Shown: positions 1,288 through 49,958 of the stretch, one piece after another | How positions within the stretch are numbered: position 1 is the first letter of the stretch | How the letters are laid out: each line of letters opens with the position of its first letter | NCBI GenBank assembly: GCA_051294375.1 | Contig: CM119263.1 | Span: 1 to 64,000, forward strand | Source of the DNA: Paraspadella gotoi | Taxonomy: Eukaryota; Animalia; Chaetognatha | Length of the DNA stretch: 64,000 nucleotides | Direction of reading: 5' to 3' | The notes under the pieces: generated by a model | Database searches by the model: none | The model's input: only the letters and a program-made list of their open reading frames with translations | Told to the model about the DNA's origin: nothing | Translations under genes and position numbers: made by a program

Positions 1288-3447
1288 TCAATCTTGATCT
1301 GCTGCCGTTTGGTTTTTGTTGTCGGATTCAGTTCCCATGACAACGAACTTGAAATTTTTGTGAACGGTGGCGGCGACTTTGTGGCTTCCGAGTTGAGTCT
1401 CCTCTTCTTTCTTAGCGCTGTCTTCTCCTCCAACGACTAAGATGCTATTCTTAGCGAGAAACTTTTCCTCTTTAATCGTGTCTTTCTCGTCATTGTCGGA
1501 TATCTAAACGTTTTTATATTACTTGAATAATGAATATGTTGCTGGCGTTATATTCACACGCCTCACGTCCACCATCCGTCAGCCAAATCCATTGGCTCAG
1601 AGGGGGAACACACCATCCCAGGCGTAGTGTTCCATCCACAGTCCTAACAACTTCCCTCTGCGTTGGCAAAGCGAGACCGTCCTAGGGTAACCGCGCCAGT
1701 GACTGGAGGCGTCACTGAGGGTCGGAAGCCCCCAAAGCCAACAGTGAGATGCCCCATCCAATGGGCATCACAGGCAACCCGGCTGTTGCCAAACTATAAG
1801 CGGTGAGCCCTACTATCGACAGCACGCCAACTTCTCGAGGCCGTACGCTACGACAAAAACGGCCTATGCCCTGCGCGGACTGTCGGGTACGCTCACACAA
1901 GCAACGCCCTCTATGCCCCTGGGGTACGCCTACGACAAAACGCCTATGCCCCCACAACTCGCGCTCTCTCTCTCTTCTCCCACTATGGTAACATCTTGTC
2001 AGACACCTCTCAGCTTGAGGAACCTGAGTGATGTCTTAGCCCGGGCGATTCCTGTGGCGGTATATTCACACTGCCTCACGTCCACCATCCGTCAGCCAAA
2101 TCCATTGGCTCAGAGGGGGAACACACCATCCCAGGCGTAGTGTTCCATCCACAGTCCTAACAAACTTCCCTCTGCGTTGGCAAAGCGAGACCGTCCTAGG
2201 GTAACCGCGGCAGTGACTGGAGGCGTCACTGAGGGGGTCGGAAGCCCCCAAAGCCACAGTGAGATGCCCCATCCAATGGGCATCACAGGCAACCCGGCTG
2301 CTTGCCATTAATGTATTATGTTAAACAAATCGATAAATAAATTCTTGTGGCGATATATCAACAGTCTTACCTCTTCAGCCAATCCCAACGGGTCAGAGGA
2401 GGTATGCACCATCCCAACCGTGCGTTCCTTCCACAGTTAGAACACTTGTCCCTGCGCTGGCACGAGCGAGACCGACCTAAGGTAACCCGGCCAGTGGGAG
2501 GCGGTGCCACTGAGGGTCGGAAGCCCCTAACGCCAACAGCCGACATGCCCCACCCAGCTGTGAATCACAGCCAACCCGGCTCTTTCAATATTCTCATTTT
2601 AAAGAGACCGAGAAGAAAGGGGATAGCCCAACAAGGGGACCAGAAAGGTCTAAGATTTTTCCGTTAGTTGCACTGCTTTTCGGAACTACAGATGGTTTAA
2701 CTAACTGGTGGTTTAACCGGTCGATAATTCAGTTGCAAGGACCGTTTCTACTACGGTTTGAACCCGGGGCCCATTAGTACGGAGACACATACACACATAC
2801 ACTATTACCTACAGCCTTTCCCGACAATCATAGCCGACTCTTTTATATCCAATGAAAAGAGGAAAAACAGAATCGCCAGGATTTCCACAATTAGCCGTAG
2901 CCAGGAAAATTCACCTTTCTTACACCCTCGACACTTTGCTTCTGGGATTCTGCCAGATCGACGATCGTTTGTATGACATTGCTGTTGACTCGTTCGGCGC
3001 CGCCTATTTCCGTGGCGGAAGTCTTGGCGGGACTGACGACTTTCCCTTTGACGCTTCGACTGGGGATCGGCGGTTCTATGAGGCCGACGAGCGAATTGCC
3101 GGCACCGAAGAATTGCTCCTCAACGTCGTCGCCAAAGGGACCGAGAGGATCGTCCACGTCATTCTTGACGATCTTTTCTATGTCAGGCTCTAGGGTGACA
3201 GAGAGAGAGAGACCTTCTGGATAACATCCCACGGAATATTGCTCAGAAAAAAATATTATTATTGAAATAAGGTTACCCGAAAAATCAGCCGTCATTGCCC
3301 AACAGGATGATTTTCAGGAAACGTGGGGAACAAAATATATTAAATTTAAAATATCATTAAAGAGGAAAGATGAAACGAACCTGAAAGACTTTTAGAATAG
3401 ACAGCAGTCACGACGACGAAGAATAGTAATAATAATCCGCATGACAT
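1288..3447 (-). CDS. Small secreted acidic protein of unknown function; 3 exons (~3447-3381, ~3242-2915, 1503-1288)
   Basis: Exon 1 reads MSCGLLLLFFVVVTAVYSKSLS (signal-peptide-like) followed by a GT donor; exon 2 lies in ORF 2891-3295 and ends VRK|GTGAA; exon 3 starts after TTAG in phase 0 (ISDNDEKD...AADQD*). The exon 2 acceptor is approximate. Confidence 0.6.
1662..1742 (+). ncRNA. Twister ribozyme, type P5 permutation (family A, 5' LTR); predicted cleavage 1688/1689
   Basis: P5 GTTGGC/GCCAAC; P2 GCG/CGC; GA-CC-G; short P1 TCCTAGGG; TAA; GCC; P3 AGTGAC/GTCACT; P4 GGG/CCC enclosing TCGGAAGC; pseudoknot CC:GG. Confidence 0.85.
2176..2257 (+). ncRNA. Twister ribozyme type P5 (family A, 3' LTR); predicted cleavage 2202/2203
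   Basis: Same elements as 1662-1742 with small indels and a substitution (GGC for GCC). Confidence 0.8.
2346..2590 (+). mobile_element. Diverged solo LTR related to family A
   Basis: Starts TGTGGCG, ends ...CAATA, TSD TTCT (2342-2345 / 2591-2594); colinear with the family A LTRs. Confidence 0.8.
2456..2537 (+). ncRNA. Twister ribozyme type P5 in the diverged solo LTR (P2 imperfect)
   Basis: GCGA-GA-CC-G-ACCTAAGG-TAA-CCCG-GCC-AGTGG...CCACT-G-AGGG-TCGGAAGC-CCCT; P3 sequence changed while pairing is retained. Confidence 0.7.
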
Positions 3448-7900: not shown

Positions 7901-10900
7901 TCCATTCATTTAATAAATAAGCTATCTTGCCCCTGACTTTAGACAGGCTTTGGTGGTTTAAGGCCTACATCACTCTTACAAGATAATAACATAGCAGGTT
8001 TCTGCAAGCTTTCAATCAAGACTCTCTCAGTCTCGTTTATTCACTCCCAGAGTACCTGGCTTCCCTATCAATGAAGTGGTATAATATTTCAAAGAAGGTC
8101 TAAATTGTATGAAAAGACCACCCCCTTAAGTATTAGATCGGGGAATAATATATTGCACTCAGTATTGTACCCAGCATTATTATAAAATTTTGTTATTTCC
8201 AAAATTATTTTTAGAGCAGAAGTGAAACTTTTTTCAGCCCACTCCAGCTCCAGCCGAGATGAAAACTCAGCTCCAGTTAGAAAATATATTCAGCTCCAGC
8301 TCTAGCTCTACATCATTTCAATGTACATATAAATGAATGACCATAGAACTTCAAGGCATTTCATAATACCAACAGAGATACGAAAATAAATGGCTCGGAC
8401 CGTATGTCATCGAAGTACAACTTTCTCAATAAATAAATCTGGCCCCAAAGCTAGAGCCAAACTTTGTCAATGGGGTGGGTAAGAAATTTGATTTGGGAAC
8501 CTTCCCAAATAAAACTTCATACAATTCTGAGAAAACTTTCAATGGACCAAAATTTTCTACAATGGCTAGAAGCACTAGTAATTAGTTTTTTAATATTTCT
8601 TTATAGGACACGATGCAAGTTAACGTGGCGAAACCTACCCATGCAAATTTTTAGCATATTTTTTTATCTGTGAGCCAAACTTAAAGCTTTATATTAATAA
8701 TACTGCACGCGTTTGGTTTTACCAAACCTTTACTTTTACCATAACCCTCACTTATCAACAAAAAAGGAAAATTAATAAAAAGGCAGTTAGAAGCAGACTC
8801 GTGGTGGCAAAAATTTATTTTATAATTTTGAATTTAGAAAATATAAATTTTAGATCAATCAATTTGGAAACTAAATGACGAATTTTTTCCCCCACTTTTT
8901 CAAGATTTGACTTTCTTTTTTTACTGTATTCCTCCTGGGTTGAGGCAAAGAATAAGGAAGACATTTTGAGTTAATTCATGTTATTGTAATCATATATGTA
9001 TATTTTGAAACAGTTCGGACTACAACTTCTATACCATTATGGTGGACTAAAATCCACCAACCGTTCATCAGCGGCCATTGGTGCCGGAGGCAAGTCATTC
9101 GCCTCCCAACCCAAAGGTCCGGGGTTCTAGCCCGGTGGTCGTCTGGCAGTTAAGAGGGACGGGGCGCTTAACCCGCCTGTAACATGGTGTTACAGCCTGA
9201 TCCGAAGCTCAGGGACTGCTTATATTGAACGGTTCTGTCATTAACACTTATCAATAATTACTGTCTCTTCACCATTTTTATTTCTTAAAAAATTAGGAAA
9301 AAAACATTTTAGAAAAACAAATTTTGAGCATTGAGAATTTTAGATCTGAAAATAGAGAACAAATTTTGAATTTTTTAAAAAATCAGCTTTTAACTATTTT
9401 ATTTTGCTATAATCTAAATTTTTTTTTTTGATATCTTTTATTTTAGAGTAGAAATAAAATTCTCAATGAGCATAGGTCAGTTCATTTTTTTTTTAATTTT
9501 AAAAAAAGATTTAATATTTTTTTTATTTAAATTAATATTTATACTTTTATGAATAAAACAAAGCTCATATGAATGTATAAAGATATAGGAGATGAATTGG
9601 AATGGTAAAAGTATAAAAAGTAAGAAGCTTGGAAAAAGCGTAAGTTAAGAATGAAAGATCAAAAAGGAAAACTAGAAATAGATTGATAGAGAGAAAGAAA
9701 AAAAATAAAGAGGGATATTGAATAAGAAAAAGAAAGAGTCATTGTTGTTATTATGTTTATACTTATTATTGTTGTTATTATTATTATATATTTTTATTTT
9801 TTAAAATGAAAAAATAATTAGTTAAAATTTTTTTTTATTTAAATTAATTTTTACCAGAATGATTTTGTCCAAACTTAAGATTAAGCTCAATCAACCTCTT
9901 TTCTGGCCACACACTAAATTTCAGATCAATCCATCAATTTACTAAAGTGTAATGATAGGTTAAAGTTACTGATGGATGGACAAATAAATAAATGTATAGA
10001 AAAAAGGAAGGATTCAATTTTTTTGGATAATTTTTTATAAATCAGTATTCTGAAGAGACAGTAATTATTGTAATGTTAGTGACAGAACCGTTCAATATAA
10101 GCAGTCCCTGAGCTTCGGATCAGGCTGTAACACCGTGTTACAGGCAGGTTAAGCGCCCCGTCCCTCTTAACTGCCAGACGACCACCAGGCTAGAACCCCG
10201 GACCTTTGGGTTGGGAGGCGAATGACTTGCCTCCGGCACCAATGGCCGCTGATGAACGGTTGGTGGATTTTAGTCCACCATAATTCTAAGATAAACCAAG
10301 TAATTTACTAACAAAATATAAGGGGTGGACAGATAAATGGATAAAATGGTTTATAGACTATTATAAAAAAAAAAATATATTAATTTTTTTTATTATCCTA
10401 TATTTTGTTATATCCTAACTACCAAATATTTTTTTGCATTGATTTTTTTTCATATATGAAGAAAACCATGATGTTTCATATAACCTATTCAGAGATAACA
10501 ATTTCAATCACCGATTTTTTTTTTTATGGCTGCATACACTACGCCACGCAAACTTGCATCGTGTCATAGATAGTAAATGTCAAAACTTTTTTTTAAAATT
10601 TTGCATTTTTAAAAGCAGATTCATATATTGTCTACACAAAGTATAATTCTTTGTTTAATATTTTAATGATAAGTAGGTCAAATTTAAGAAAAACCAGAAA
10701 AAATCATCCGATGATTTTAGCAGTTTTTGCTAATTTTCAGTAATAAAACATCAAAAGTTTAAAAAGTTGTAATTGTTTGCTTAACTTTTTGAGTTCTACC
10801 AGAATCAATTTAAAAAACTTAAAATATCCAAAAAAATTTTTTTACATTATATAATGATTTTAATTGGCGAATTACTCATGGTTCGGTACATTTTTAAAAA

Positions 10901-11823
10901 AAAAAGATTTAACAAAATAACTAATACCAATAATGGATAAGTTTAATACTGTTCCAATTAAAATTTGAATTTGGTCGGCTACCGCTTCCAAAGCCAGCTG
11001 AACCGAAAGGACAAATTATTTTATATCCTTAAATTATACCTACAGTTAGATTTCAAAAGTGAGAAACAGTATGAAACGAGTTACCTTGTGCTCCAGGAGA
11101 GCCGGGCGTATTTCTAGGGAAGTATTCGCTAATCTTTTTGGCGGCGCCGCCCGCTTTTCCGCAGTCCATCGCGCCGCGCTGCCCGTCGGAGCCGCTGTCT
11201 TGATTCTTTCTTTTGCGACGCCGCTCGCCGGGCGTTTTCTTTTCGGCGCTTCCGGTGGTGGCGGGTGGCGCCTCGCGCGGGGGCTCTTGCATGCCGTGGT
11301 TAATCTCGTCGCTGTTTCGCGACCCGTTGCTCTGGTTCGAGTTTCCGTCCACGAATCCGACTCCGCCGATTCCTGGGGGGGGAATGTTGGATAGTTATCA
11401 CTGGGCGAATGAGGAGCGATAGCGGAGAGGGGATAAGACTTTCGGTCAAAGCCCAAATATAAATTAAAAACCTTTATGGTCCGAAGCTAAGGGACTGCTT
11501 ATATTGAACGGTTCAGTCATTAAATCATATCTATAATTACTGTCTCTTCACCTTTTTCAATTAACATATTTCTTTCTACGTAGTACTTAAAAAACTCAAT
11601 AAAAGAATTAATTCATCAAATTTTTCGGCCAAACGAAAAGGAAGTGATAAAACAACTGACCGCCTTGAGCGTGAGCGTTAACTCCATGGCTCGGCGCCGA
11701 CGGATTGGAGACGTTCATCTGGTTGGAGGGAATTGCCGGCCTCTGAACTCCCTCGAAGCGCGCCTCGAGGAGAGCCTGACGCCGGGCATCAATCTGAGGA
11801 CTGATGTGAGTTACTCCATCCAT
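4929..11823 (-). CDS. TLK: Tousled-like serine/threonine kinase; exons 11823-11661, 11372-11085, ~7090-6663, 6530-6345, 6203-4929
   Basis: N-terminal [12 protein letters not shown]; KKISEYF; [26 protein letters not shown]; kinase motifs [36 protein letters not shown]; GT-AG boundaries. Confidence 0.96.
9038..9271 (-). mobile_element. Family C solo-LTR-like element (TGAAGAGAC...CCACCATA) with antisense tRNA-like module
   Basis: TSD CCAT on both sides; near-identical copies elsewhere in the window. Confidence 0.8.
9071..9142 (+). pseudogene. tRNA-derived (Gly-CCC-like) module inside family C
   Basis: Acceptor GCGGCCA/TGGTCGY, T-arm-like CGGGGTTCTAGCCCG, CT-CCC-AA anticodon loop; anticodon stem broken. 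Confidence 0.55.
10051..10282 (+). mobile_element. Family C solo-LTR-like element
   Basis: TSD ATTC; the empty site is visible in the paralogous host repeat near 39475-39490. Confidence 0.85.
11475..11550 (-). mobile_element. Internally deleted family C element
   Basis: Both termini retained with TSD CCTT. Confidence 0.75.
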
Positions 11824-25500: not shown

Positions 25501-28500
25501 AGAAAAGAGAGAAAAAGAATAAGTCCCTGCAGAGCCAGCTGCAGGCTCGTTTTTTTCCCTATGATTATGAATCAGTGACTAGGGAAAATAAAGAGGGAGA
25601 GAGACATGTAATTAAGAGAGAAAAGAGAGAGAGAAAGAAATATGAAAATAAAAGAAAGAAAATTTGTTTGTTTTGATAAAACGTAAACAAAACATATTTA
25701 ATAACTGTCCAGACTCAATTTTAAGCACATCGATGATAAGCTGTATATAAATTTTCAGCTTCATACACCCAAATTTAATCATAAAAAAGGCGATCTATAA
25801 TTTGGAACGCCGACGACAACAACAACGCCGACGACGCCACTTATGGGCAAAAGCGATACAATATCGTCGCAAACGCTAAGCGATTGCGACGATAACAAAA
25901 AAATTTATATGCCTTCATTAAAATTTTTAACTCTGAAAACTGTTATACTTTTAACAAGGTTTTAAACAAATCCTAACTTAACATTTTTGGATAAAATTTA
26001 TAGAAACTAGTTCAGAAAGGTGCCCCATGATTAGGGCTTTAATTTGATACCTTGCCCACCATCCTATCTTTTTTCTTTCAAAAGTTATACAAAAAAATAA
26101 CTTTTTTTATCATCGGAGAACTAAGGATTTGAACTACGCAGTACAAATCTTTGTTAAATAAAAGTTTCAGCAAAGCGGGAGTATCTCAATTTATCCTATT
26201 TGTATAATAACTAAATTTCAAAATAAAAATTAAAAAAAAAATTTCAGTTATACCCATCGTCTTACTCGTTTATCAGAGAGAGATGAGAGGAGTCGCCAAC
26301 AAGTTACAGCACTGAAAAAGGCACACGCCAGAAGAGAGGCGAAGAGGCATAAAACGTAAGGAGCGGCTTGCAGAGACAGCTGCAGGCTCGTTTTTTTCCC
26401 TGGATGATGATAGAGTAAGTGACTTAGGGAAATAAGAGGGAGAGAGACATGTAATTAAGAGAGAAAAGAGAGAGAGAAAGAAAATATGAAATAAAGAAAG
26501 AAATTGTTTGTTTTGATAAAACGTAAACAAAACATATTTAATACTGTCGCTGCACTCTTTAACCGCACATCGATGATAAGCTGTATATAATTTCAGCTTC
26601 ATACACCAATTTAATCATAAAAAAGGCGATCTATAATTTGGAGCCGACGACAACAAAACGGCGCGACGAGCACTTATGGGCAAAAGTCGATTACAATATC
26701 GTCGCAAACGCTAAGGATTGCGAGCGATAACAAAAAAATTTATATGCCTTCATTAAAATTTAATCTGAAAACTGTTATACTTTTTAACAAGGTTTTAAAC
26801 AAATTCCTAACTTAACATTTTTGGATAAAATTTAAGAAACTAGTTCAGAAAGGTGCCCATGATTAGGGCTTTAATTTGATACCTTGCCACCATCCTATCT
26901 TTTTTCTTTCAAAGTTATACAAAAAAAATAACTTTTTTTATCATCGGAGAACTAAGGATTTGAACTACGCAGTACAAAATCTTTGTTAAATAAAAGTTTC
27001 AGCAAAGCGGGAGGTATCTCTTTTATCCTATTTGTATAATAACTAAATTTCAAAATAAAAATTAAAAAAAAAAATTTCAGTTATACCCATCGTCTTCATC
27101 CGTTATGGCTTATGGTTTAAGAATTCAGAGAAACAAAGTATCTAGTCCAAATTTCAACTTTTACACTGTACTTTTACTGTTATTCTAGGCCGAATCATAT
27201 TTTGCATGTATTTGTTCAGCATAACCGTCAGGAAAGGGATGGCTTGTTAGTACAAATGGTCAAAGTAAATTCATGAGCGATAATTTTTTTTCCGTGCACA
27301 TGAAATTAAGCGTGATCTGTCTGCGTCTTATGGTAGTTGTGGTGGTAGTTGTGAATATAGTGTTTGTTATAATTGTAATTGTTGTTGCAACTACATTTTT
27401 TTTCATATAAAAAAAACAAGCAAAATAAAATACATGTTAAGCGTAATTATTGTTTTTTTCCACCAACTCATTTCCACTCAGACGATTCCACCGAAACTTG
27501 ATTTCCAGCTTAATCACAATGCTTCACAACCAACACACAAAATTTCAGGTTAATCACCCTATCCACGCATGAGTAATTGGCGTTCCAAGCTGGTGGGACG
27601 GACGGACATGGATTTTTTTTGCATAATTTTATAAAAATTCGAAGATTAGACTTACGGACAAAGTTTAAACCATTTTTAAAAAGTCATTAAGTTCGCCAAA
27701 AATATTGAAAACTGGTTTTTTGTACTGATTTTTAATTTTCAGATTATGAATATAGTTTTTTATAATTTTGACTAACTTAATGACAAAATTTTCAAAAATA
27801 GCTTATACTTTCTAAAATCAATTATTTGTCAGGAATACAAATCCGTTCTTAAAATTGAAAAATTATCATTGATTGGTAAACGATCGCCACATATACTTAT
27901 ACATAGGATTTTTAATATACAAAATTTTAATAGGTTCTTATTTTCAATTTTTTATAGGTTAAATGTTAATTCTATAACATTTTATTTCACCCTACAGTAT
28001 TTACCCAATTTTAATAATATGTTTATACTTCAAACATGGACATTTCCGACAATAACAAGAAATTTTTGTATAAAATCATCATCACCATTACATTATTCGG
28101 ACTTTTTACCCTAAAATTTTCATGAATGAAGTTTGATATCTATATTTTGATTATTATATTTTTTTATAATATTTAGGTTTGGGTTAGGTTGATTCTCCTG
28201 CGATGTTACGAAAATACGTATAAATTGCAATGAGCGTTTGGAATGAAATGAGTTTGNNNNNNNNNNNNNNNNNNNNNNNNNAAGTTTACTAGATACAGTC
28301 ACAGTGATACTATAAGGGGGTTATGTTGCCTGTGATAAGATATGCATATAACTAGGTACCAAAAGGTTCAGTGTTCAGAACTAACATCAAAATCCAAAAT
28401 GAAATTAGACACATTTAGATTCAATACTGCAATATGTAAATGAGATTGAGAGATTCAATCTCATTTAAGATCATATTAAATAATCATCTCTTACAATACT

Positions 28501-31500
28501 GCTTCTTAAAAAATCATTATCAAAAATACCTGAGAAATATTTTGTTGATTCGGCGCCTGCGGACTGTCCCGCTTCCCCGCTTCCCCGCCTCCTTTTCCTT
28601 TTCCTGTGGCTTCGTGAGAGGCGCTGCGGTGTCGATCCGCGGGTCGACGAAAGGCGAGCAGCGTTGAGAAAATCTCGCCCACGGGTTTATTTCCCAAAAG
28701 CGACTCCTGCGATTGAGTCTTGGGCGGTTCCGACTTCGATCCTCGAGGACTCGTGTCGTCCTTCTGGAAGAGGGCGCCGAGTGGGCGAGAGCCCGAAAAC
28801 AGGGCGCCGGTCGGTCGATTCTTGCCCAAAAGGAAGGAAGTGGTGGGTCGCCCGGAGCCGCTCGTCGACGTGGACGCCTCGGATCCAGAAGGGTCGCGGC
28901 GCTGTGCCTCGCTTTTGGGGGCGCAGGCAGCATCGGCGTCTAGAGGTTTTCCATTAGGAGATTCCGAGTAGAAGCTCGGCAGCATTGGAGGACGAGAGTC
29001 ACCGGACGAAGAGGATGGTGGTTGGTTGGGTGGGGAAGGGCCGGGAATGCCGGAGGTAGGGTAGGGCGAGGTGGGCTGAGGTTGATGAGGGGATGGAAGG
29101 TAGTTGGGTTGAGCTTGAAGAGGAGATTGGAGAGGTTGGATGGGAGACAGATGCGGTTGAGATGGAGACGGCTGAGGTTGTATCGGAGATTGCTGAGGAT
29201 GATTCAACGGGGAATGTTGCGGGTGCATGGGCGAATGTTGTGGTTGCATAGGGGAATGCTGAGGGTGCATTGGCGAATGTTGAGGATGCATAGGAGAATG
29301 CTGGGGATGCATAGGAGAATGTTGGGGAGGCATAGGAGAATGTTGAGGATGCATAGGAGATTGGTGCGATTGCATAGGTGATTTGTGAGAATGGCCAGAG
29401 TCGGTCTGCGGCGAGCGAGAGGCCGCCATTTTGTAATGGGCGGTCTCCTGCTTTTCAGAGGGAAAAGGAAGTGTTTCGACGACGGAGATTCCGCGTTCTA
29501 AGTCTGTCGTTCGAATCTTGATGGGCGGGACGCGACCCTCCATCGCCGGGCGGTCGTCGTTCTCCCTCTTTAAATGCTGAATTACTTGGTAGATCTTTTC
29601 GGGTTGCGGACTGCGATGATCCCTCACTTCTGCTTTGAATGTCAACTCGTTGGTCAGCTTGTTCTTCAGCATGTGGTGCGGCGATGGGTGAGCGTCGATG
29701 TCGGTCTTGGCGCCCGGTAGCGGCGGAGTGCAAAGCTGCGGAGAGTGGGAGACTTTACGGCCATCGGCGCCGCCGACGCCCTTGTCCGAAGACGGGGCCT
29801 TGATCACCTGTGCGTCTCTCGGTGATGGAGAAGGAACGGGCGAAATGAACTGATAGGCGGCGCTGACCGGAGGAGTCGTCAGTTGTCGAGGGGAACCAGG
29901 CGCGCCACCGAGGGCGTTGTTACGGACAATGAGATCCAAGAGGTCGGACCCGTCCGAAGTCTCTTTGATCGACTCGAAGTCGCTCTGAATCTCGCTGGAC
30001 AACGCGGGTGACTCAGAAGTCGGCGGCGTCGACGAGGTCGAACCCTGGAATCACAAATGTTCTTCACTTGTAAGTTTTAATAATAATTGACAAAGTTGCA
30101 CATTCAAAACTAGTATGAAATGTTTTCGTTTAGACGCATAAATCATTAAAAATTACTAAATCTCTATCAAGAATAATGAAGAAATTAATATAATGTGGTG
30201 AATCCTAAATTCGCCTCCCGTATAGCTTGGTGAAACTCAGCTCGTCCCATTGGCTTGGACAGCTAAGTACTCGTTCACCAACCGTGAGTTCCGGGTTCAA
30301 TCCCCTCACGGTCACGCTGGTTAAAGTGTGATGGTGTCGGCATAAACACGCCAGTGACATGGGGTGGTCACTGCAGGTCCAAAGCCAGCTGGCAGGAGAT
30401 GCCTCACACCCCAGGCATCGCACATGTCCCTCCGTTGCCATAAGTGGTTAGCCCTACTATCGAACACGCAACCGCTGCGTACCGTCGTTCACGTCGTCGC
30501 TTAAGGGTATGCATCCCACGCCTATGCCCTACTTCTCGCTCGCTCTCTATGGCAATGAGTCTGTCTACTCTCAAGACAGTCACTCTGGGCTTGGTCACCC
30601 CAGTGTGCTGTCTTGGGGGGGGCATGTGTGGTGAATCTTAAATTCGCCTCCCGTATAGCTTGGTTAAACTCAGCTCGTCCCATTGGCTTGGACAGCTAAG
30701 TACTCGTTCACCAACAGTAGGGCGTTGAAAAATAACGAAATATAACAGATCAAATGAGGTACATAGCTATTTTAGTGTAATAAAGTCTAGAATTCGATGA
30801 TATAACCATTTTTTTGTATAGTCTCATCTTCTTTGTCGGAAATGGCGATTTTTGCAGCATATAAGGTGCTATTAAAATGGAGCAAACATTGTAGAGTATA
30901 AGAAACTAAAATTATTAAGATTTTATAAAGCTATATTTAACTTATATAATATAAAAATAAAGCCCCATATAAATATTTTGGTAAGTTTATTTACAAATTT
31001 TATATTTTATTAATAGTTTGTTAGCTATATTTATTAATAAATAATAATAAAAAATAAGCTAAAGTGAAAAAATAAAAAAATTCAAATTTTAAAACCGGAT
31101 TTGAATTCCTTACAAAAAGTTGATATAAGAAAGTATAATCCATTTTAAAAAATTCATTCATTAAGTAGGTTAAAAATATTAAAAACTATTTTTTATTTAA
31201 TTTTTCAGTTTTTGGCTTAAAATTATAGTTTTTCTGATTTGACCAACTTAATGACATAATTTTTGATATAAAAATTATATTTTCTTATATCAACTTTTTA
31301 CAAAGAATCGCAAATCCATGAAAAAAATTTTGAAATTATTATTTTTTTAACTTTAACCTAATTTTTACTCATAATTATTATAAATATAGATAATTAAATT
31401 TTATAAAAAACATAAATTTAGAAATAAACTTAACAAAATATTTTATAAGTCTTTATTTTTATATTTCAAAGCTCATATAAATTTTATAAAATTTTATAAT

Positions 31501-34500
31501 TTATTTATCATAAATTATATGGTTTTGCTTTTTTAAACATTTTATATACATTAAAAACCGTCATTTCCGACAAGAAAGATAAAATTATACAAAAACATGG
31601 TCATCACCATCGAATTCTACAGACTACATTACACTAAATAGCTATGTACCTCACTTGATTGTTATATTTTATTTATTTTTCAACCTCTAACCACGTGAGT
31701 TCCGGGTTCAAATCCCCTCACGGTCACGCTGGTTTAAAGTGTGATGGTGTCGGCATAAACACGCCAGGGACATGCGGTGGTCACTGCAGGTCCAAAGCCT
31801 GAGCGCCAGCTGTCGGGAGATGCCTCACACCCCAGGCATCGCACATGTCCCTCCGTTGCCATAATAATTCCAATCTATTTAAAAGAGAATTGAGAGATAA
31901 AAGATAAAGATAAGTAGGAACCGGAATAATCAGTGGAATGGAGCTCTCGAGGCCCCAAATTTTGATTAATGAAATATAAGACACAAAATATTTTACTCTT
32001 ATTCTGAGGGAACCAAACAGATCATAATACAGGGACTCCTGTCAGGGAGTCCAGCTTTATCGGTATCTTAAGCTCAAGAGCGATTTTAAGATGGAAAAAA
32101 ATTATTGGGAAACTGGAAGCCTAAATTTGACCCAAAAATTGTCCGTAATTTTTTCTATCACAATTATTCTTTTTTAATTTTTAATAAAATTTAAAAAAAT
32201 AATATAGGAAACAACCAGACTTGTCGCCTCAGTTCTCCTGACTGTGATCCCTAAACTTTTATTAGCCAAACTTCGTTCAATGGGGTGGGTCAGAAGTTTG
32301 TTTGGGAACCTCATACATTTCTGAGAAACTTTCAATGGAGCAAAATTTTCTAAATGGCAAGAAGCATTAGTAATTAATTTTTTAATATTTATTTATAGAT
32401 AGGAAATGTCAAAAATTTTTTTTTGAATTTTTTATTTTTAAAGCAGATTCAAATAGCTTATGAAAAGTTATCTACACAAAGTATAATTCTTTTTTCAATA
32501 TTTTGGGTTTAAATTGAAAAAACCTTAAAAAATCATCATCATCATCATCATCCGATGATTTTAGCAGTTTTTACTAATTTTAGTAATAAAACATCAAAAT
32601 TTTTAAAAGATTGTAATTATATTTTTTGCTTAACTTTTTAAGCTCTATCAGAATCAATTAAAAAAACTTAAAATATCCAAAAAAATTTTTGACATTATAT
32701 AGCAATAAAATAATATTAATTAGCGAATTACTCATGGTTCGGAACATTTTTGTAAAAAAATATTAACACAATAATTAATACCATAATGGATTAGTTTAAT
32801 GCTGTTCCCATTAAAAATTGAATTTGGTCGCTACCTCTACTTTTATGAAAGGGAGTTACTTAAGCCAGAAGTCAAAAGTGTCTCCTGCATAATAAATAGT
32901 TATTAACCATCCATTCTCCCGAATGCAGCCATAGTGGTAGGACTGGAGGCTTTCCTACCGGGTTCGCAAAAGCTTGCTCAAAGCTTCTGTGGGTGCTTGC
33001 AAAGGTTTTTCAAGGCAGTCCAAATGTGAAAAATAAATGATATGAGTCTATTAGAGATGACAAAGTTTTTTTTATATAAATAATTCGTGCAAACAAAAAC
33101 TTTGTCAATCTCTAAACATTTCGAACAACGAAAAGAAAGGATTAACACAATAAGATATGAGTCAAAGGAAATCAGAGAGGGAGAGAGTGAGAGAGAGAGG
33201 AAGAGAGTGAGGGCAAAAATTCAAAAAGAGGAAAAAAGAAAAGTTAGACAAAAAAAAAGTTTTTCAGATGTTCTCAGCGTAAAAAATAGGAAAAAAGTCT
33301 AAATTCATAACTTTTTGACTCGTTTTATTCATTTTTCACATTTTTTCATATTAATGGTTTGAATTTTATAATTAAAGGCAGCATATAAATATTCTCATCT
33401 CTCAATCTTTCAATTCCTCCAACCTAATAATTATTAAGTCTCTGCGGTTTTGAAATACGGATGAATCTAACGAGAAGAAAACACTTATCAAAATATAAAA
33501 TAATAATAAATTGTTAAAAACGAACCTGAGACGTTGAGACTTTTATTCCTCCTGCCGCCGTTGCCGAAGCGGCGTGGCTCCCTCTCAATGAGCTTAATGG
33601 CGGCGCGGGCGGCGTCTCTATTCGAGAGGACACCGCGTTGGGTGGCTTCATGGCTTGCGTCGGCGGAGAAGGACTGTAGTGCGGGGAGAGCTGCATAGAA
33701 GGATGGCTCGGAAGCCGCGGGGGCATGTGCGTCGTCGGCTTTGTCGACGGAATAGCCGGAGAGCTTTCTGGACGGCCGGCGATGTGCATTGAGACCGCAT
33801 CGGTCGACGGCGTGACTCCCTGAAGCGTGCGGCTCATATGTTGCAGATTCGCCAGAGCGGGGTTAGACCCCATGCTCTTGCTATTGGGCGGAAGATGATA
33901 CCCCGCCGCGATAATGTCCTGAGGTTGTATGGGAGTATGTCCGGATGTCTCCGCAGTGTGGTTCGTCCCGGACCGAGATTTAAAGTTGTTTGATTGATCG
34001 ACGCTCGTCGCCGTCTCGGGGGACGTCAACGAAGATTCTGGGGGCCTCAGATGTTTTCTCGACTCCGCCTGCTGATGTTGCAAATGATGTTGCTGAAGGT
34101 AATGTAATTGCTGTTGCCGGAAGGCGGCGTGGGAGAGATCTTGGGACGCGGAGCGTGGAATGGGATCCCTGGAGGCAGCGGCGGCGGCGGCCGACTGGGA
34201 TTCGTGGCGGGAAGAAGAGGACGAAACTGTGGAGGGAGCGGAGGCGGAGGACGCCGGCGACGACAGATATTGACGGATGAGATTCGAGGATGAGGAAGAT
34301 GGCGTCGAACGCGACGCGGAACCTCCGTGAATTCGGACCAGATCCGGAACGGGCAACATGTCTTTACCAGGCGGGTAGCCTTGGTAGCCTTCCACGTTGG
34401 ATGTCGAAGGCTGAAAAGTAATACGATGGTTTAAAATTGATCAAAGAATCATCTCCCTCTCTCCCTCCCCGCCTCTACAGATTATAGACGAATTTCAGTT

Positions 34501-37439: not shown

Positions 37440-39300
37440 TAGTATCATAATTATAATTATTATTAATATTTATTTTATTATTATTATTAATATTATAAAT
37501 AATAATTTTATTATTATACTGATTAAATTTAATTACACTTACTTATTTACCTATTTATTGGTAAATTTTTTTGTTATTTGGCTTAACCTTAACCCTATCT
37601 CATATTAAACATGGCAAGTAAGTTTACTTTTCTTAACTTTGAAGTTTTATTAAATAATACTTAGTAATAAAGGTTAATAAGTAATAAATATAAAACAAAA
37701 ACATTTTTGTTTCTTATTTATAGAATAATTTTTTTTAATAAAAATTCTTTTTTAAATAAATTCTTGGAAAAAATAAATAAATTTAAATTCAGGTAAAATA
37801 CTATTTATTACTTTGCATTAAATACGTATCTGAATTGATTTAATATGTCTTGGTCTTTTGCTGTTTTTATCGCTTTTTCAGCTTTTTTATTGAGAATCTT
37901 TATTGTGCAAATCATTCAAATTAAATTATTGCTTAAAAAAAGGTTTTGCAGAAGCTAAGGATAATATTTTGTAAAAACTTATTTTACTATTTTCATTTCA
38001 CCAATAATTTATTTATCCAAAACATTTATTCATGATTTGATACTTATTTAATATTTACGTCATTTTAAAATCTTTGCTTTAAATTAAAAGCAGCTATATA
38101 AAAATAGAATATGAGAAAGAGTTTAAAATAATTCTATAACAATTTATTTTTAACAGTGGACATGTTTCGACTTTGATTCAAGTCTTCATCAGCACTTGTG
38201 AATTGACAGACAATTTCAAATTACAGGAAATGTGAGATAGAGAGAGAGCGAGAGAGAGAGAAAGAAAAGAGAGAGGGAAAGGTTACCAACAAAGATTTTG
38301 ACACACACACACACACACATTTCCTGTAATTTGAAATTGTCTGTCAATTCACAAGTGCGCAATACCCGACTAAATGCCCCCCAGATTGTAACCCACCCTA
38401 TACTGTTTTCAGTAGAGAGAAGGGAGCAATCTTCAGCAAGTCTAGGAGCCTGGAATAAGGTCAGAATACACTCGACAGGATGAGTTTACCAGTGTGGATA
38501 GTGTGCTAAAGATTTTTATCCATATCTTTTGTGCCACCTCTGCAGAAATAGATTAGGTCCTAAGCTTTGAACCAGGCTCAAATATTTAGTCATTAATTTA
38601 TTTGTTTTTTTTTATCTCCCAATAATGTACCTTGCTGCCTTTAATATAAGGGAAATATTTTAAAATGATATAAATATCAAATAAGTAATAACAAATTATG
38701 AATATGTGTTTTGAATAAATAAATTAATAACGAAATGAGAATCATCTAATGTATTTTTAAACAATATTTGGATTCAGGCTACATATTATCTTTAGATCCT
38801 GTTTAACCTTTTAGGTAAGAATTTAATTTGAATGATTTGCACAAAAGAGTTTCGCACAAAAAAGCAGAGAAAGCGACAAAAACAGTGAAAGACCAGTTAA
38901 GAATAAATAAATTTCAGATACTGATATAATTCAAGGTTCAAGGTTATATATTCTTTTTTACTTGAATTTAGATTTATTTATTTTATAATTAATATTTTTA
39001 ATTTTCAAGAATTAATTTAAAAAATAGTTTTATCAAAAATTAAAAATTTATTTTGTTATATCTCATATTTATTACTTATTAACATTTATTACTAAGTATT
39101 ATAAAGGTTTGTTTAATAAAACTTAAAATTTAAGTAAAACAGGCTGAATGGCCATGTTTAATATGAAATAGGGTAAAGGGTAAGCCAAATAAAAAAATTA
39201 TTATTAAATAAGTTAATAAACAAATTTAATAAATTTAGTCAATATAATAATATTATATTATTATATAAAATTATTAAAATTAATAGTAATTATGATACTC
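37440..39300. mobile_element. Large degenerate foldback element with long inverted arms
   Basis: ATTAAACATGGC/GCCATGTTTAAT, TGTGCAAATCATTCAAATTAAATT/AATTTAATTTGAATGATTTGCACA and other mirrored blocks. Confidence 0.65.
38155..38196 (-). ncRNA. Minimal type-I hammerhead ribozyme (Penelope-like); predicted cleavage after GUC, 38159/38158
   Basis: Minus strand AGTG-CTGATGA-A-GACTT-GAATCA-AAGTC-GAAAC-AT-GTC-CACT: intact core, stems I and II, palindromic minimal stem III. Confidence 0.88.
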
Positions 39301-40167
39301 TATCTATGAAAAAAATTAGTATTTGGTAGTTAGGATATGACTAAATACAGGATAATGAAAAAAATTAATATATAATTTTTTTTTCTTTTTTTATAATAGT
39401 TTAATTTTATAAACCATTTTATCTGTTTATCTGTCCACCCATCATATCTTGTTGGTAAATTACTTGGTTCATCTTAGAATACTGATTTATAAAAAATTAT
39501 CTAAAAAAATTGAATCTTTTCCTCTTTCCATATATTTATTTGTTTGTCCATTCATCTGTAACTTTTACCTATCATTACACTTGAGTAAATTGATGGATTG
39601 ATCTGAAATTTTGTGTGTGGCCAAAAAAGAGGTTGATTGAGCTTAATCTTAAATTTGGACAAAATCATTCTGGTAAAAATTAATATAAATAAAAAAATAA
39701 AAAATAATTTTAACTATTTATTTTTTTATTTTAAAAAATAAAAATTTATAACAACAATAATAAGTATAAACATATTAACAACAGTTACTTTTTCTTTTTC
39801 TCACTCACTATCCCTCTTTATTTTTTTATTTTTTTCTCTTTCAATCCATTTTACATTTTCCTTTTTGATCTCTCATTCTTAACTTACCTTTTTTCCAAAC
39901 TTTTTACTTTTTGTACTTTTACCATTCTAATTTATTTTCTCTATCTTTATACATTCATGTGAGCTTTGTTTTAGTCATAAAAGTAGAAATATTAATTTAA
40001 ATAAAAAAAATACTAAGTATTTTTTTAAAAATAAAATAAGAAAATAAGAAAATGAACTGACCTATGCTCATTGAAAATTTTATTTTTACTCTAAAATAAA
40101 AGATATAAAAAATAAATATGTTTATGGTACAGAAGTTGTTGTCCGAACTGTTTCAAAATATATATAT

Positions 40168-40403
40168 TATGGTGGACTAAAATCCACCAACCGTTCAACA
40201 GCGGCCATTGGTGGCGGAGGCAAGTCATTCGCCTCCCAACCCAAAGGTCCGGGATTCTAGCCCGGTGGTCGCCTAGCAGTTAAGAGGGACGGGGCGCTTA
40301 ACCCGCCTGTAACACAGTGTTACAGCCTGATCCGAAGCTCAGGGACTGCTTATATTGAACGGTTCTGTCACTAACACATATCAATTATCACTGCCTCTTA
40401 TCA
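40168..40403 (-). mobile_element. Family C solo-LTR-like element
   Basis: High identity to 9038-9271; TSD unclear. Confidence 0.8.
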
Positions 40404-40840: not shown

Positions 40841-41353
40841 TTAAGCAAATTCCGTATAAAAAATCTGGTTATCGCCGCCATTGTGTTCCCATAAGTGCAA
40901 AAGCACACCCATTTCTGGTGAGCAATCTGGTACATCGATAGCTCTCCCGCCTTCCATCGCCGACACGATGAACCACGAGTTGCTGCCATCGCCAGCTGGC
41001 TTGAACCTCCACTGTTGATTGACGCCGCCGTGCAGATCATATTTGCAGATAGAGGCTCCGTTTTCGTTCGCTCCCCATTCCACGTCCAAGACTTTTCCGT
41101 CCTTTACACTAACGATGTGGAAAATATCATCCTCCACATGAACCAAGCGGAACATTTGATGAGGCTCCTCGTTTCTTTCCCACTGGCATAGCTGAGTTTC
41201 TGGTCCACCGTCAATCACATGCTCCGAACATTTGTTACGTAGAAACACCACTTTAGGAGAGTAAATATTGCAAAAGGTTGAATTTATTGGGTAAAATGAT
41301 CCCTCTAAACCTATTACATTAGCTTGAAGTTGAACTTTTATCTTTTTTACCAT
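40841..41353 (-). CDS. Ricin B-type (beta-trefoil) lectin domain protein; 5' end uncertain
   Basis: GKVLDVEWGANENGASICKYDLHGGVNQQWRF, GRAIDVPD, LWEHNGGDNQIF (QxW-type repeats). Confidence 0.85.
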   Translation of the reverse strand: MVKKIKVQLQANVIGLEGSFYPINSTFCNIYSPKVVFLRNKCSEHVIDGGPETQLCQWERNEEPHQMFRLVHVEDDIFHIVSVKDGKVLDVEWGANENGASICKYDLHGGVNQQWRFKPAGDGSNSWFIVSAMEGGRAIDVPDCSPEMGVLLHLWEHNGGDNQIFYTEFA

Positions 41354-41629
41354 ACAATCATTCAAGTAGGTAGACGATGCAATAAAAGTTCAATTTCGTT
41401 AGATTCAAATTTGAACTAAGGTACAAATTTTGTACACTTTAATATTGTTTATTATTTATGCAAAGACGTTTTGATGTAAAGAATGCAAAAATATAACAGT
41501 AAAGTTAGTTACTTATAGATAATCACCAAAGATATAGTTATTCACCAAAGATATAATTTCATATTGTTCTGCTATAAACTAAAAAAGCTTCCTTTTATAA
41601 AATTTACTCTCCTTGATCATGCAATCTGT

Positions 41630-42391: not shown

Positions 42392-44933
42392 TTACTCGTT
42401 TCCTTCTACGAGCTTTATAAGCAAGATTCCGAGATGGTCCGAGTCTCCGAGATCGTCTTCAATCCTTTTTCTCAATGTTGTTTCGAATTTTCTTTCGTAT
42501 TCTTCTCTTATTTTAGCTAAATCGATCTGAATGAGTAATCAATAAATATATTGAAATTATTCGTTAAATTTTCTTTAGTAACGTGTTATGGATTTACATA
42601 AACGATGTCCGAGTTAAAATTTTTAGAATTTGTAAGGGACTTTATCTTTAGTTTTGGCTTAAGATACAGAATTATTGATAATTAGGAGCGTTACCTCGCA
42701 ACGTCGAACAATGGTGTACCACAGACGATATTCGCTTGTCCCAATTCCACACATACAATCTTCTAAAAGCTCAGCGAAGTAGCTGACAGGATCCTTAGCG
42801 TATTTCACTATAAATTTTGCAAAACTATGTATGACTTGCTAATTTTTAGTTGCGCCGCGAGTACTCGCGAAGCAACTCTATAAGAACACTTGGGTTTCCT
42901 TCGGTCGGTCCGAATGTCTGTCTGTCCATCAATCTATCTTACTTACATTAAAAAAAAACTCATAACTCGGGCAATACCATATCAATTAAGCTCCTTGAAC
43001 TAGCCGGTTCTTGTTTTATTTGAAATTCCATTTGATTGCGCCCGACTTATTTTTACCAACGGTTAGTGAAGGGGGGGGGGGAAAGGGGGCTTTTTTCTTT
43101 TTCCCCCGGCTAGGGGGACCGGGAACCTCTTGCAAAATAAGACACTTTGGGGGGGGCCCCCGGACTGTCCTTGTCCCCTTCCCCATTTTCTTCCAAGATA
43201 CAATCGTACATTTCCACCATTTTCCTCAGTTGTTTCCACGATCGCGTCATGAAACACGGACATGAATGCTGTTTCGTCAGTTCCAATTTTTCCTTCGCCT
43301 TAAAACATCGAGTAAACACTCTTAATGCTATTAATAAAAAGTCCAAGAGCACAAATACTTTCATTCACGTTCTACAGTGATTAATAATAGTGTCATGAAG
43401 CAAACTCACAATGACAACAGACAACAGTCACAAAAACGTTGACAATCACCTGCTTCGTAAATCTTTTTGGCGTCTTCTCGGGCCATATCTTCGTCCACCT
43501 TCTTGCTCTCGCTCCTTCCGCCGGATAATATGGAAATCATGAATCTCTCGAAGTAGCCGCCCAAATCAGAGCTAATAGCTTCTTGAAGTTCTTCCTCGAA
43601 GACTGAAAAAAAAAGAAGCAATGGCATTCCATATGTGATATGTCATTCAATGGGAAGACAAGTTCTTTTCTCACGTTCTTTGTATTTCTCCTTCAGCTTT
43701 TCCACTTCTTTCGGACGAATCGTCCCGAAGACATCGACTAGTACTTCTTCGGATGTGCCTGCACCTTTGAGGGCGTCGCGAACGAGTTGCGCCAAAAATT
43801 CCGTTCTTTCCTGAAAAAATTTAATGAAAATCATAGAAAAAAATTAAATATAGAAGAATCAATTATTTCAAAATATACCAATTGTATAGTGTAAAACTAT
43901 ACTATAACTGTTAACTGTGTAATGGATAAATAAATTGCATACAACCGTAAGCTAATAGCTACTCACTCTAACGAGACCAATGGCGCAGTCCTCAAAATGA
44001 CCATGGGCTTCCTTTCGAATGTCCTCAATCAAATCCTACTTAAATCAAAAAGTTGATAAAGCATATCCGGATCTAGGCATAACATATCTGTAACATAACA
44101 TACTCGACCGTAGAGAGCGGTGTACTGAGTGGAGATTTCTTGTATCTGTTTGTTTGAGTGGGAACCTAGCACGGCGCCGATTCTGTCTTCGTCCGTGCCC
44201 ATGCCTTCCATCGCCCCACGGAGTTCCTCCGCAGCTGCTTGTGATTCGAAGTCTCGAGCTTTGCCGATTGAAGCCTTAAATAAGAATTAGAAAAGTGTGG
44301 CGAATCCTAAATTTGCCTCCCGTATAGCTTGGTGAAACTTAGCTCGTCCAATTGACTTGGACAGCTAAGTACTCGTTCACCAACCGTGAGTTCCGTTTCA
44401 ATCCCCTCACGGTTATGCTGGTTCAAGTGTGATGGTGTCGGCATAAACACGCCAGTGACATGGGGTGCTCACTGCAGGTCCAAAGCCCTGAGCGCCAGCT
44501 GTCGGGAGGTGCCTCACACCCCAGGCATCACACATGTTCCCCGTTGCCATAATAGTTTTAATTTAATTATGGCGACGGCCTCAGTTTAAAAATTAAACAA
44601 TCTTTAAAAATAGAAGGAAAATATTGATTTAGGCCCGAAAATATTTACTCATTAGGAGCCTTTTAAAACAATATGGTGATGAGACAGTAATTATTGTTGT
44701 GAGCTTTGGATCAGGCTGTAACAGCGTACTACAGGCGGGTTAAGCGCCCCGTCCGTCTTTACTGCTAGACGACCACTGGGTTAGAACCCGAGACCTTTGT
44801 GTTGGGAGGCGAATGCATTGTCTGCAGCACCAAAGGCCGCTGATGAACGGTTGGTTGATTTTAGTCACCATAAAGAAATATTTTAGACTCTCATTTTAAA
44901 ATTTCAGCAAAAAATTGTCAAAAAACTTACCAT
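42392..44933 (-). CDS. Annexin (paralog 1), about 7 exons
   Basis: ATG|GTAAG first exon; AMEGMGTDE, ALKGAGTSE, SDLGGYFE, CVGIGTSEYRL, IEDDLGDSDHLG; the third repeat is not clearly found. Confidence 0.85.
44296..44551 (+). mobile_element. Family B solo LTR in annexin intron 1
   Basis: TGTGGCG...TTGCCATA; near-TSD AAAG/ATAG. Confidence 0.88.
44417..44499 (+). ncRNA. Best-preserved twister type P5 ribozyme (family B); predicted cleavage 44444/44445
   Basis: P5 GCTGG/CCAGC, P2 GTGT/ACAC, GA, pseudoknot TG:CA, P1 TG-TCGG-CA, TAA, GCC, P3 AGTGA/TCACT, P4 CAGG/CCTG around TCCAAAGC. Confidence 0.9.
44677..44872 (+). mobile_element. Diverged, internally deleted family C element
   Basis: TGATGAGACAG...TTAGTCACCATA, colinear with 10051-10282. 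Confidence 0.75.
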
Positions 44934-48163: not shown

Positions 48164-49724
48164 CTCGTCTAAAGAAAAACAAGAAAAACCCGACTATCAA
48201 GGCCTTTGATTCGAGGGTCGACCCGACCTAACTCTATTTTGTTCAGTGGGGGGGGGGGTTAGAAAGGACTGACATCGACGAATCAGAGCGTTTTAAACAA
48301 TGTCGAAGCTGCCCACGATCATTAGCGGTAATTAATTAATTTGATCCGAAATGTTTGTTTTTGGGTCTTTTCGTCACTGACCACGACAAAAGCAACGACG
48401 ACGATAATGGCGACGATGACAATAATGCCGATAACGATTGACTTAATTAATTGACTAATTGATTAATTAACTGTTTAATTATTTGTTTAATTAATACATC
48501 TTGTATTTACATATAATATAAAAAAAAGCATAACCAACAAGAATTAGTGAAAAAGGTTTTTTTATTTCCATTTAAACTCATTTCCACTCAAACGATTCCA
48601 TCGAAACTTGATTTCCAGCTTAATCACACACTTTCCTATCCACATACAAAATTTCAGGTCAATTGCCCCATCCACTCATAAGCAATTGGTGTTCAAATAG
48701 TGAAATATATTTTTTCGTTTTTTCCATTTAAACTCATTTCCACTCGCACGATTCCATCGAAACGTCATATAGAGCTCAATCACACACTTCCCTACACGCA
48801 CACATAAAATTTCATTACAATCCATTTATCCAATCACGAATAATTGGAGTTTTTTGCTAAGGTGGACAGACGGACGGACGGACGGACATTATTTTTTTTG
48901 TTTAATTTATCATAATTCGATGTTCTGAGGGGGAGAAATAGAGTGAAGAAAAAGCAACATTAAAAAGAATAATTTGACTTTGACATAAGTTGTAGTAAGT
49001 CACCAAAAAAGTTATAGAACGAAAAGGTGAAATATATTCCGATCTTCTTTCCTCTTCACACCCAAAAAAATTGCGTGATTCCTTTGATGAGTCACTCGAT
49101 GATTCACTTGAATGTGATTTAGACGAAACTCATTTTCGGTTCCACAAAAAAGGGATGCCATTTGACCATATGTTTTCATTATAAGATGAAATTGTTACAA
49201 CCAATATATAAATTAAGGCTTCTATCACTCATAAAAGATGATAAGATAACAGAACCATGCAAGCTTTCAATTAAAGGTATCACAGTCCCGTGTACCCGGC
49301 TTCCCTATCAATGAAATAATATAATATTTCAAATAATGTTATATTTGTATAAAATGACCATTCAACTTAGTATAAGGTCGGAGAATACTACAATGTACAA
49401 TGTACTCTTAAGTTTTGAGAGAAATTTATTTTTTGATTCTCGAAATTTAAATAATCTTACGATTGCTTTCATAGATTGTCCAAAAACAGAAGAAAACATT
49501 TTTTCAGCCAAAGACCAAAAAAAATACTTTGCTGCACTAAATTCACTTAAAACACGAAATTATAGGTTCGGCAACTGCCCTTATAGGTCATAAGAAATAT
49601 TTATTTATAGTTGATTGTTACACTATAATAAATAGAAAGGTTACAGAACTGCTAAGTCATTATCTTGTAAGAGTGATGGAGGCCTTAAACAAACAAGGCC
49701 TGTCCAAAGTCGGGGGAAAGACAG

Positions 49725-49958
49725 TGAAGAGACAGTGATTATTGTTATGTTTTAGTGACAGAACCATTCATTATAAGCAGTCCCTGAGCTTCGGATCAGG
49801 CTGTAACACCATGTTACAGGCGGGTTAAGCGCCCCGTCCCTCTTAACTGCTAGGCGGCCACCAGGCTAGAACCCCGGACCTTTGGGTTGGGAGGCGAATG
49901 ACTTGCCTCCGGCACCAATGGCCGCTGATGAACGGTTGGTGGATTTTAGTCCACCATA
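49725..49958 (+). mobile_element. Family C solo-LTR-like element
   Basis: Near-TSD ACAG/ATAG; empty site (AAG-ATAG-CTT) in the related repeat near 7920. Confidence 0.85.

Follow-up and report, generated by a model that had tools for sequence, protein, structure and literature searches.

A non-coding LTR element with a predicted twister fold in the chaetognath Paraspadella gotoi: a possible animal counterpart of plant LTR retrozymes

Introduction

What kind of mobile element occupies positions 30194-31863 of the first 64 kb of contig CM119263.1 from the chaetognath Paraspadella gotoi (assembly GCA_051294375.1; this 64-kb stretch is here called the window)? A first-pass annotation had assigned it to a second, sequence-divergent family (family B, beside a family A) of long terminal repeat (LTR) elements that carry a twister ribozyme and all the hallmarks of a retroelement, and had taken two such families in 64 kb as the sign of an old and abundant radiation. 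In the sources consulted, retrozymes fall into two classes: those of plants are LTR elements and have a type III hammerhead, those of animals are non-LTR elements and have one of type I (PMC7229834; bioRxiv 10.64898/2026.07.22.740005). The second of these sources, a preprint of July 2026, still draws the same line. A twister in an LTR element of an animal goes against both rules. As the best explanation of our data, we read family B as the animal equivalent of the LTR retrozymes of plants, with a twister as its ribozyme and possibly with transcription by RNA polymerase III (Pol III).

Structure of the family B element

The copy at 30194-31863 is a non-coding LTR element with TG...TA ends. It is flanked by the target-site duplication (TSD) ATAA at 30190..30193 on the left and 31864..31867 on the right (plus strand, as are the parts of the element described below), and the chance of a 4-nt match at the local composition is about 1%. 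The 5' LTR (30194..30442; 249 nt, TG...TA) lacks 8 nt at about position 30386 relative to the 3' LTR, and is followed by a non-coding internal region of 184 nt with predicted hairpins (30443..30626). The 3' LTR is split into a left part (30627..30717), identical to the 5' LTR at 89 of 92 nt, and a right part (31690..31863), which includes a twister fold at 31729-31810. Between the two parts lies an insertion of 972 nt (30718..31689; no strand assigned), an AT-rich palindromic DNA transposon of the miniature inverted-repeat (MITE) kind with inverted ends starting with TAG and a degenerate 8-bp duplication. This MITE, which is putatively hAT-like, matches its own reverse complement at 74%, and relatives of it are found near 27660-28052.

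The LTR-to-LTR period in this copy is 433 nt; with the 8 nt that the 5' LTR lacks near 30386, an undamaged copy would have a period of about 440 nt (256 + 184). With the insertion excluded, an alignment of the two LTRs shows 7 substitutions, three gaps of 1 nt and one of 8 nt, some of which look like long-read homopolymer errors, errors and mutations not being separable at this locus. No ATG-started frame of the element is longer than 78 amino acids. Without the insertion the element measures about 690 nt and has, as expected of a terminal-repeat retrotransposon in miniature (TRIM), two direct LTRs, a length below 1 kb, no coding capacity, fixed termini and a duplication within the 4-6 bp range, its 3' end being TA and not the usual CA. 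The termini form short inverted repeats, and the ends are fixed independently by a solo LTR and by the ends of sequencing contigs, both described below. The copy is damaged and probably dead, which is not evidently true of the family itself. Its start lies about 150 nt from the boundary of a long minus-strand exon-like open reading frame (ORF, 28506-30050), which suggests that it probably sits in an intron, antisense to the host gene.

The structural details that the first-pass annotation had given for this copy, namely the ATAA duplication, the TGG 2 nt behind the 5' LTR, the G8 tract before the 3' LTR and the period of 433 nt, were all found as described. It had not mentioned the 972-nt insertion, the loss of 8 nt at P4, the solo LTR at 44296-44551, a third family (family C) or the permuted P5 arrangement of the ribozyme.

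A permuted twister fold in each LTR

Each LTR of the element holds, according to our modelled pairings, a type-P5 (permuted) twister fold with an additional P3 hairpin, and we are highly confident in describing family B as a twister-fold TRIM. The fold is seen best in a solo LTR of family B (44296..44551, plus strand; 256 nt, flanked by AAAG and ATAG), which is 90% identical and has an intact twister at 44417-44499 with a predicted cut at 44444/44445. Here P2' (44427-30), the G-A dinucleotide (44431-32) and T1' (44433-35) are followed by a 2-bp P1 hairpin and the cut site (44444/45), behind which P2, T2, the P3 hairpin, P4 and the L4 loop follow in this order. In the 5' LTR of the 30194-31863 copy the fold (30316..30389; predicted cut 30343/30344) has a broken P4 and failed our P5 descriptor, and in the 3' LTR (31729-31810; predicted cut 31756/31757) one P4 base is missing and P3 has one mismatch, with the 972-nt insertion lying upstream. 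The conserved core, consisting of G-A after P2', N-A-A at the cut and the U-NNN-A-A-G-C loop, is present in the solo LTR, the 3' LTR of family B and the 5' LTR of family A. The absence of an intact core from family B would have undone the twister claim; instead, most contigs carry the part of P4 that is missing from the 5' LTR.

The P5 descriptor gave 3 matches on both strands of the window (128 kb), all of them in LTRs of families A or B, and none in 30 shuffles; a looser version gave 8 matches, as compared with a mean of 0.27 in 200 shuffles. Across six copies from families A and B, 90.8% of 120 cells were paired, as opposed to 31-46% in slid controls. These copies represent two lineages and one diverged copy, so that the shuffle control overstates the significance and the slid controls are the fairer ones. 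Compensatory changes on both sides were observed in 6 of the 20 pairs, including 2 of the 3 pairs of the T1 pseudoknot, which reads CCA/UGG in family B and CGG/CCG in family A and is paired in 18 of 18 cells. Pairings with covariation are present for P2, P4, T1 and T2, P4 being broken in the 5' LTR copy of family B. The fold is local (about 83 nt), and between its closing stem and the end of the LTR lie about 52 nt in family B and about 50 nt in family A, close to the shared distance of some 50 nt noted earlier.

In a narrow scan, model positions 1-58 of Rfam Twister-P5 (RF02684) were aligned with every pair intact, and the P3 hairpin was scored as an insertion. With the published type-P5 twister (PMC5408937) the fold shares the strand order, the positions of the catalytic G and A, the L4 loop, the T1 and T2 pseudoknots, P2, P4 and the closing P5 stem; it differs in the extra 7-bp P3 hairpin, a P1 of 2 bp with a 4-nt loop, and a score below the threshold. 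A type-P1 reading was rejected in favour of P5, as the Rfam twister-P1 model scored 21 bits with P2 broken and a P1 descriptor found no match; moreover, the 3' strand needed for the P1 reading pairs with a downstream hairpin in families A and B.

Within the core of the solo LTR the DNA runs differ at no more than about 1% of depth, with the exception of one P3 position at which the solo copy carries the minority letter (among the 40 of 101 differences listed). Since the rates outside the core are similar, this shows homogeneity and not selection.

Three diverged families

The family A element (1537..2308, plus strand) has two twister LTRs, a period of about 510 nt and a probable ATGT duplication, and a diverged third LTR follows it at 2346-2588. 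It is homologous to family B throughout, at identities of only 49-64%: 53% in the 5' half of the LTR (z 2.9), 64% in the twister (z 7.2), 59% at the LTR 3' end (z 3.9) and 49% in the internal region (z 6.4). The view that the two families differ in the 5' half of the LTR is borne out by these values, as is that of a second, diverged and abundant family of twister-bearing LTR elements.

The count of two families in the window has to be raised to three. Units of family C are about 235 nt long and have TA...CA ends; the one at 9039..9272 (plus strand) shows a CCAT duplication and a twister-like fold at 9146-9219. Further copies lie at 10051-10281 (minus), 40168-40399 (plus) and 49725-49957 (minus), with a decayed one at 44667-44873 (minus) and a fragment at 11477-11557; all are solo units. 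A covariance model built from families A and B alone recovered each of the five C units in which the region is still present (E 1.5e-7 to 7e-5). Family C shows compensatory changes in P3, a T1 of CCG/CGG, a short P2 and almost no P1. In total, 11 twister-like loci were counted in 64 kb, 6 of which were the copies used to train the model. The 4-bp duplications are exact in family B, exact in 2 of the 4 C copies examined (one of the other two agrees at 3 of 4 bases and one has an unclear end) and probable in family A. As to the proposed old radiation, the families are far apart, yet family B itself is homogeneous, and the claim of age is the weaker for it.

The TA...CA ends of family C mirror the TG...TA ends of family B. 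Weak model matches at 29754, 7929 and 49668 (E 0.3-1.4) were not accepted; those at 7929 and 49668 belong to another dispersed repeat, seen at 7922-8158, 49213-49398 and 49632-49724, where it adjoins a family C copy.

Abundance and mobility

Contigs from four sequencing runs of different studies were compared (X4, X3 (DNA), X9 and X10), one of which may be the source of the assembly. The solo LTR was matched by 2450 contigs of X4 and 1493 of X3. In X4, 70 contigs start at the first LTR base, 44296, and in X3 71 do so; their AT-rich flanks are unlike one another (agreement 0.44). At the other end, 59 contigs of X4 and 61 of X3 pass through GCCATA into AT-rich DNA. Because contigs begin at this base with many unrelated flanks, and TSDs are present, a segmental duplication, which, if without TSDs, the first-pass annotation had named as one of the findings that would overturn its claim, was rejected, and family B is a dispersed element. 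At least 90% identity to the solo LTR was seen in 1997 of the 2450 X4 contigs, making family B homogeneous. The stretch missing from the 5' LTR at 30386 was entered by 71 contigs of X4, 56 of X3, 12 of X9 and 2 of X10. X10 contributed few contigs (5 and 3), and no conclusion on habitat or on a relative was drawn from them. Among the X9 joints listed, none led back across the element; X9 is only presumed to be RNA, and this speaks neither for nor against expression or circles. The summed contig depth on the LTR was three orders of magnitude above that of the unique flank and about 50-fold above that of the internal region of the 30194-31863 copy, neither ratio being a copy number. As judged from these contigs, the family B LTR is very abundant, and many of its copies are solo or enclose other internal regions.

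Fixed ends together with 4-bp duplications point to an integrase, as established for Gypsy-type elements (PMC4918200, PMC10886601). A DIRS-type element was rejected on account of the direct LTRs and the 4-bp duplications. A different internal variant was seen behind the same primer-binding-site (PBS)-like block (30433-30537; runs X9, X10 and X4), with high depth in X9; on one X10 contig it is joined to a mostly unlike LTR, which suggests further families.

Conserved blocks, promoter motifs and RNA folds

Behind the 5' LTR end at 30442 come AG and then TGG at 30445, the start of the PBS-like block (30445..30463, plus strand), which is identical at 17 of 18 nt to positions 1802-1819 of family A (2 matches in a search with 0.03 expected). 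That its sequence is conserved, and not a pairing, would be in keeping with a partner outside the element, for instance a primer. Among the tRNA ends of PMC10886601 Fig. S2, the closest match is honeybee tRNA-Trp at 10 of 13 nt, or 11 of 13 with the letter that most contigs have at 30449. Before the 3' LTR lies a G8 tract (30615..30622, plus strand), separated by CATG (4 nt) from the LTR start at 30627; it is like a polypurine tract (PPT) by position, and it is also the predicted pairing partner of the LTR 3' end, of which the arm 30423..30442 (plus strand) is predicted to form 20 pairs with 30548-30556 and 30616-30626. The tract varies among contigs. Family A has no purine tract; in its place there is a complementary non-purine segment. 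Because the LTR B end is predicted to pair with the tract and family A has such a segment, the G tract is at least partly structural. In an arm swap the purine-tract arm discriminated in family B (-20.8 versus -5.8 kcal/mol) and hardly in family A (-12.1 versus -10.5). The claim of full hallmarks is less well supported: the PBS-like block has the expected position and 18 conserved nt, but its tRNA match is 10-11 of 13, it begins with CGG in family A, and the G8 tract doubles as a predicted pairing arm and has no purine counterpart in that family.

The predicted long-range clamp would bring the LTR 3' end beside the start of the second LTR, and family A forms it with a sequence unlike that of family B (1778-1792 with 1985-1993 and 2038-2045, approximate). 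The possibility that the cleaved 3' end primes its own copying was dismissed after inspection by eye, as no complementarity common to A and B was seen. Short motifs of the GCCTATGCCC type occur in hairpins once in the internal region of B (30500-30550) and three times in A (1850-1960); a packaging signal is possible.

Motifs like the boxes of tRNA-type Pol III promoters, as defined in PMC10886601, lie in LTR B at 30223..30304 (plus strand), upstream of the twister: A-like at 30223 and 30251, and B-like at 30294 with a T-arm-like hairpin, and would be consistent with a promoter function. Family C has a B box only. No tRNA was found by ARAGORN, and none of the 9 segments examined has TTTT on the ribozyme strand. 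Folded as a circle, the natural 433-nt period gave a z of -4.85 and family A one of -1.64 (40 shuffles). A metagenome scan for the PBS-like block returned 2 matches, both lying in GC-rich DNA that is unrelated and has neither a twister nor an LTR, and viral scans returned 0 and 4 matches, none with a twister.

Proposed mechanism and rival explanations

We consider it rather probable that an intact copy yields a unit-length RNA of about 440 nt that is circularised and copied into DNA by a helper retrotransposon. The twister in each LTR would cut the transcript into this unit, which would be closed into a circle, and the circle would be reverse-copied into DNA by the helper; solo LTRs would go back to recombination or to short cDNAs. 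Cutting by both twisters leaves the RNA without a terminal repeat, and normal strand transfer would then fail, a problem that circularisation solves, as has been argued for plant retrozymes, in which the circle model has been shown (PMC4918200). In mammalian cells a twister together with RtcB makes circles, and twister ends are RtcB substrates there (PMC7697609).

Several observations weigh against this reading. Cleavage, RNA and circle are all predictions from sequence. The 30194-31863 copy has two impaired twisters besides its insertion. In an 81-nt scan Rfam Twister-P5 reaches 19.2 bits (E 0.02), as compared with a gathering threshold of 37.6; no ribozyme appears when the whole window is scanned with Rfam, and Rfam gives family A only a partial P1 match and family C none. 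The covariation derives from essentially two lineages, so that the cells do not count as separate events. Folded in isolation, the ribozymes reach minimum energies no better than shuffles (z 0.7 to -1.3), and these folds lack the full ribozyme structure; pseudoknotted RNAs usually show isolated folds no more stable than shuffles. P1 has only 2 bp (twisters can be active without it, PMC5408937), and P2 of family A contains a C-A mismatch. Both the B box and a purine tract are missing from family A. Taken alone, the lack of TTTT does not reach significance (P 0.18 and 0.46), and the test for TTT was chosen afterwards (dinucleotide P 0.09, 0.18 and 0.007). Lastly, no primer tRNA was found among the tRNA ends of PMC10886601 Fig. 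S2, and no helper element was found, there being no gag or pol among the long ORFs of the window that were examined.

A linear route would dispense with the circle: an active twister would leave some transcripts uncut, or cut mostly within the 3' LTR, and set the 3' end of the RNA there, so that the repeat of about 100 nt from transcription start to cut site is kept for ordinary LTR strand transfer. The internal region behind the 5' LTR is predicted to pair with the LTR end, placing the two ribozymes in different contexts, and alternative folds that hide the ribozyme are predicted. However, the P5 fold is local, and an intact copy has the same one in its two LTRs, so that cutting is expected of both, and in plant retrozymes the ribozyme of the 5' LTR does cleave (PMC4918200); we regard this route as unlikely. 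The solo units could alternatively be LTRs of an autonomous Gypsy-type retrotransposon with a twister, the 690-nt element being its internally deleted derivative. The far higher summed contig depth on the LTR than on the internal region of this copy, which is not a measure of copy number, and the other internal variants behind the same PBS-like block would fit such an origin. Yet the internal regions of A and B are both short, non-coding and homologous (z 6.4), with common motifs and hairpins, and the absence of gag and pol noted above speaks against it as well, which makes it very improbable.

Still less probable is a Helenus-like Pol III TRIM with the twister fold as an inactive passenger. 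Family B does share with Helenus TRIMs (TRIMp3) the short TRIM form, the size range and the 4-bp duplication made in animals, and its LTR has A- and B-box-like motifs that fit those of Helenus (PMC10886601); the Rfam scores are low. On the other hand, three families have retained the core and the pseudoknot through compensatory changes, even as the LTR around them has diverged to about 50% identity. Helenus also differs in that no ribozyme is described for it ('twister' has 0 occurrences in the available part of PMC10886601), and family A lacks the B box. The 11 short motifs compared with the Helenus supplement gave 4 matches, and the 2 in view inside sequences were in internal regions and without twister context (PMC10886601, in part). 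The animal retrozymes described so far are of the non-LTR kind, which would favour a Penelope-type pseudo-LTR or a non-LTR retrozyme, with partial tandem copies made by target-primed reverse transcription instead of an integrase substrate. This is the least probable of the alternatives: it is already largely refuted by both ends being fixed at many loci, and short inverted-repeat termini, 4-bp duplications, the conserved block behind the LTR end and the lack of a tandem array in the window all argue against it.

Relation to known systems

By analogy, the family B element likely works like a plant LTR retrozyme, yet we do not assign it to that group, as it has a twister and no hammerhead family appeared in the Rfam scans. 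Shared with the plant elements (PMC4918200) are the non-coding nature, a ribozyme in each LTR, PBS-like and PPT-like boxes, the 4-bp duplication, solo LTRs and a stable predicted fold of the monomer. The plant elements differ in their type III hammerhead, where family B has a twister and an animal host. Jatropha retrozymes have LTRs of about 330 nt and monomers of 700-780 nt, as against 256 nt and about 440 nt here. The plant elements have a tRNA-Met PBS and form circles, whereas here the PBS-like block is not that of tRNA-Met, motifs like tRNA-type promoter boxes are present in family B, and circles are predicted only.

Animal relatives in function are more distant. Metazoan non-LTR retrozymes likewise bear ribozymes, but as tandem type I hammerhead repeats without LTR, PBS or PPT (PMC7229834; bioRxiv 10.64898/2026.07.22.740005), an arrangement that the family B element does not have. 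The twister T-variants of Perere-3 in Schistosoma are also self-cleaving ribozymes in an animal retroelement, but this is a long interspersed element (LINE) of the non-LTR type with a single 5' twister (PMC8501958). In the engineered Tornado system two twisters flank an RNA that RtcB circularises in animal cells (PMC7697609); that system is synthetic, while family B would be natural and mobile. In the literature searched, which lay outside subscription journals and Repbase, we found no twister in an LTR and no animal LTR retrozyme, and a prior mention is possible.

A more far-reaching proposal, which we put forward tentatively, is that this animal genome is home to three or more families of circular RNA retroelements of viroid size, which Pol III would transcribe, their LTR twisters cut, the host ligate and a helper of the Gypsy type integrate. 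This would be a Tornado system of natural origin, and the life cycle of LTR retrozymes would have been invented independently, in another kingdom and with another class of ribozyme. If true, retrotransposition by ribozyme and circle evolved again with another catalyst. Genomic twisters would gain a second testable role beside the trimming of LINE 5' ends. In addition, natural P5-type twisters with P3 and a minimal P1 are missed by Rfam, and such elements may be overlooked in other genomes.

Other features of the window

A tousled-like kinase gene lies at 4929-7154 (minus strand) and is about 80% identical to named animal proteins; for the part at 4929-6227 the best named matches, among the 120 matches listed, were in chelicerates, molluscs and insects at 78-82% identity, and one further match reached 88%. 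An ORF with a ricin-type beta-trefoil lectin domain is found at 40841-41389 (minus strand), and minisatellites with periods of about 52 nt and about 29 nt lie at 54120-55240 and 60130-61340, respectively. There is a long inverted-repeat element at 37475-39289, and another one, at 9418-10443 / 39302-40119, is split by a family C copy.

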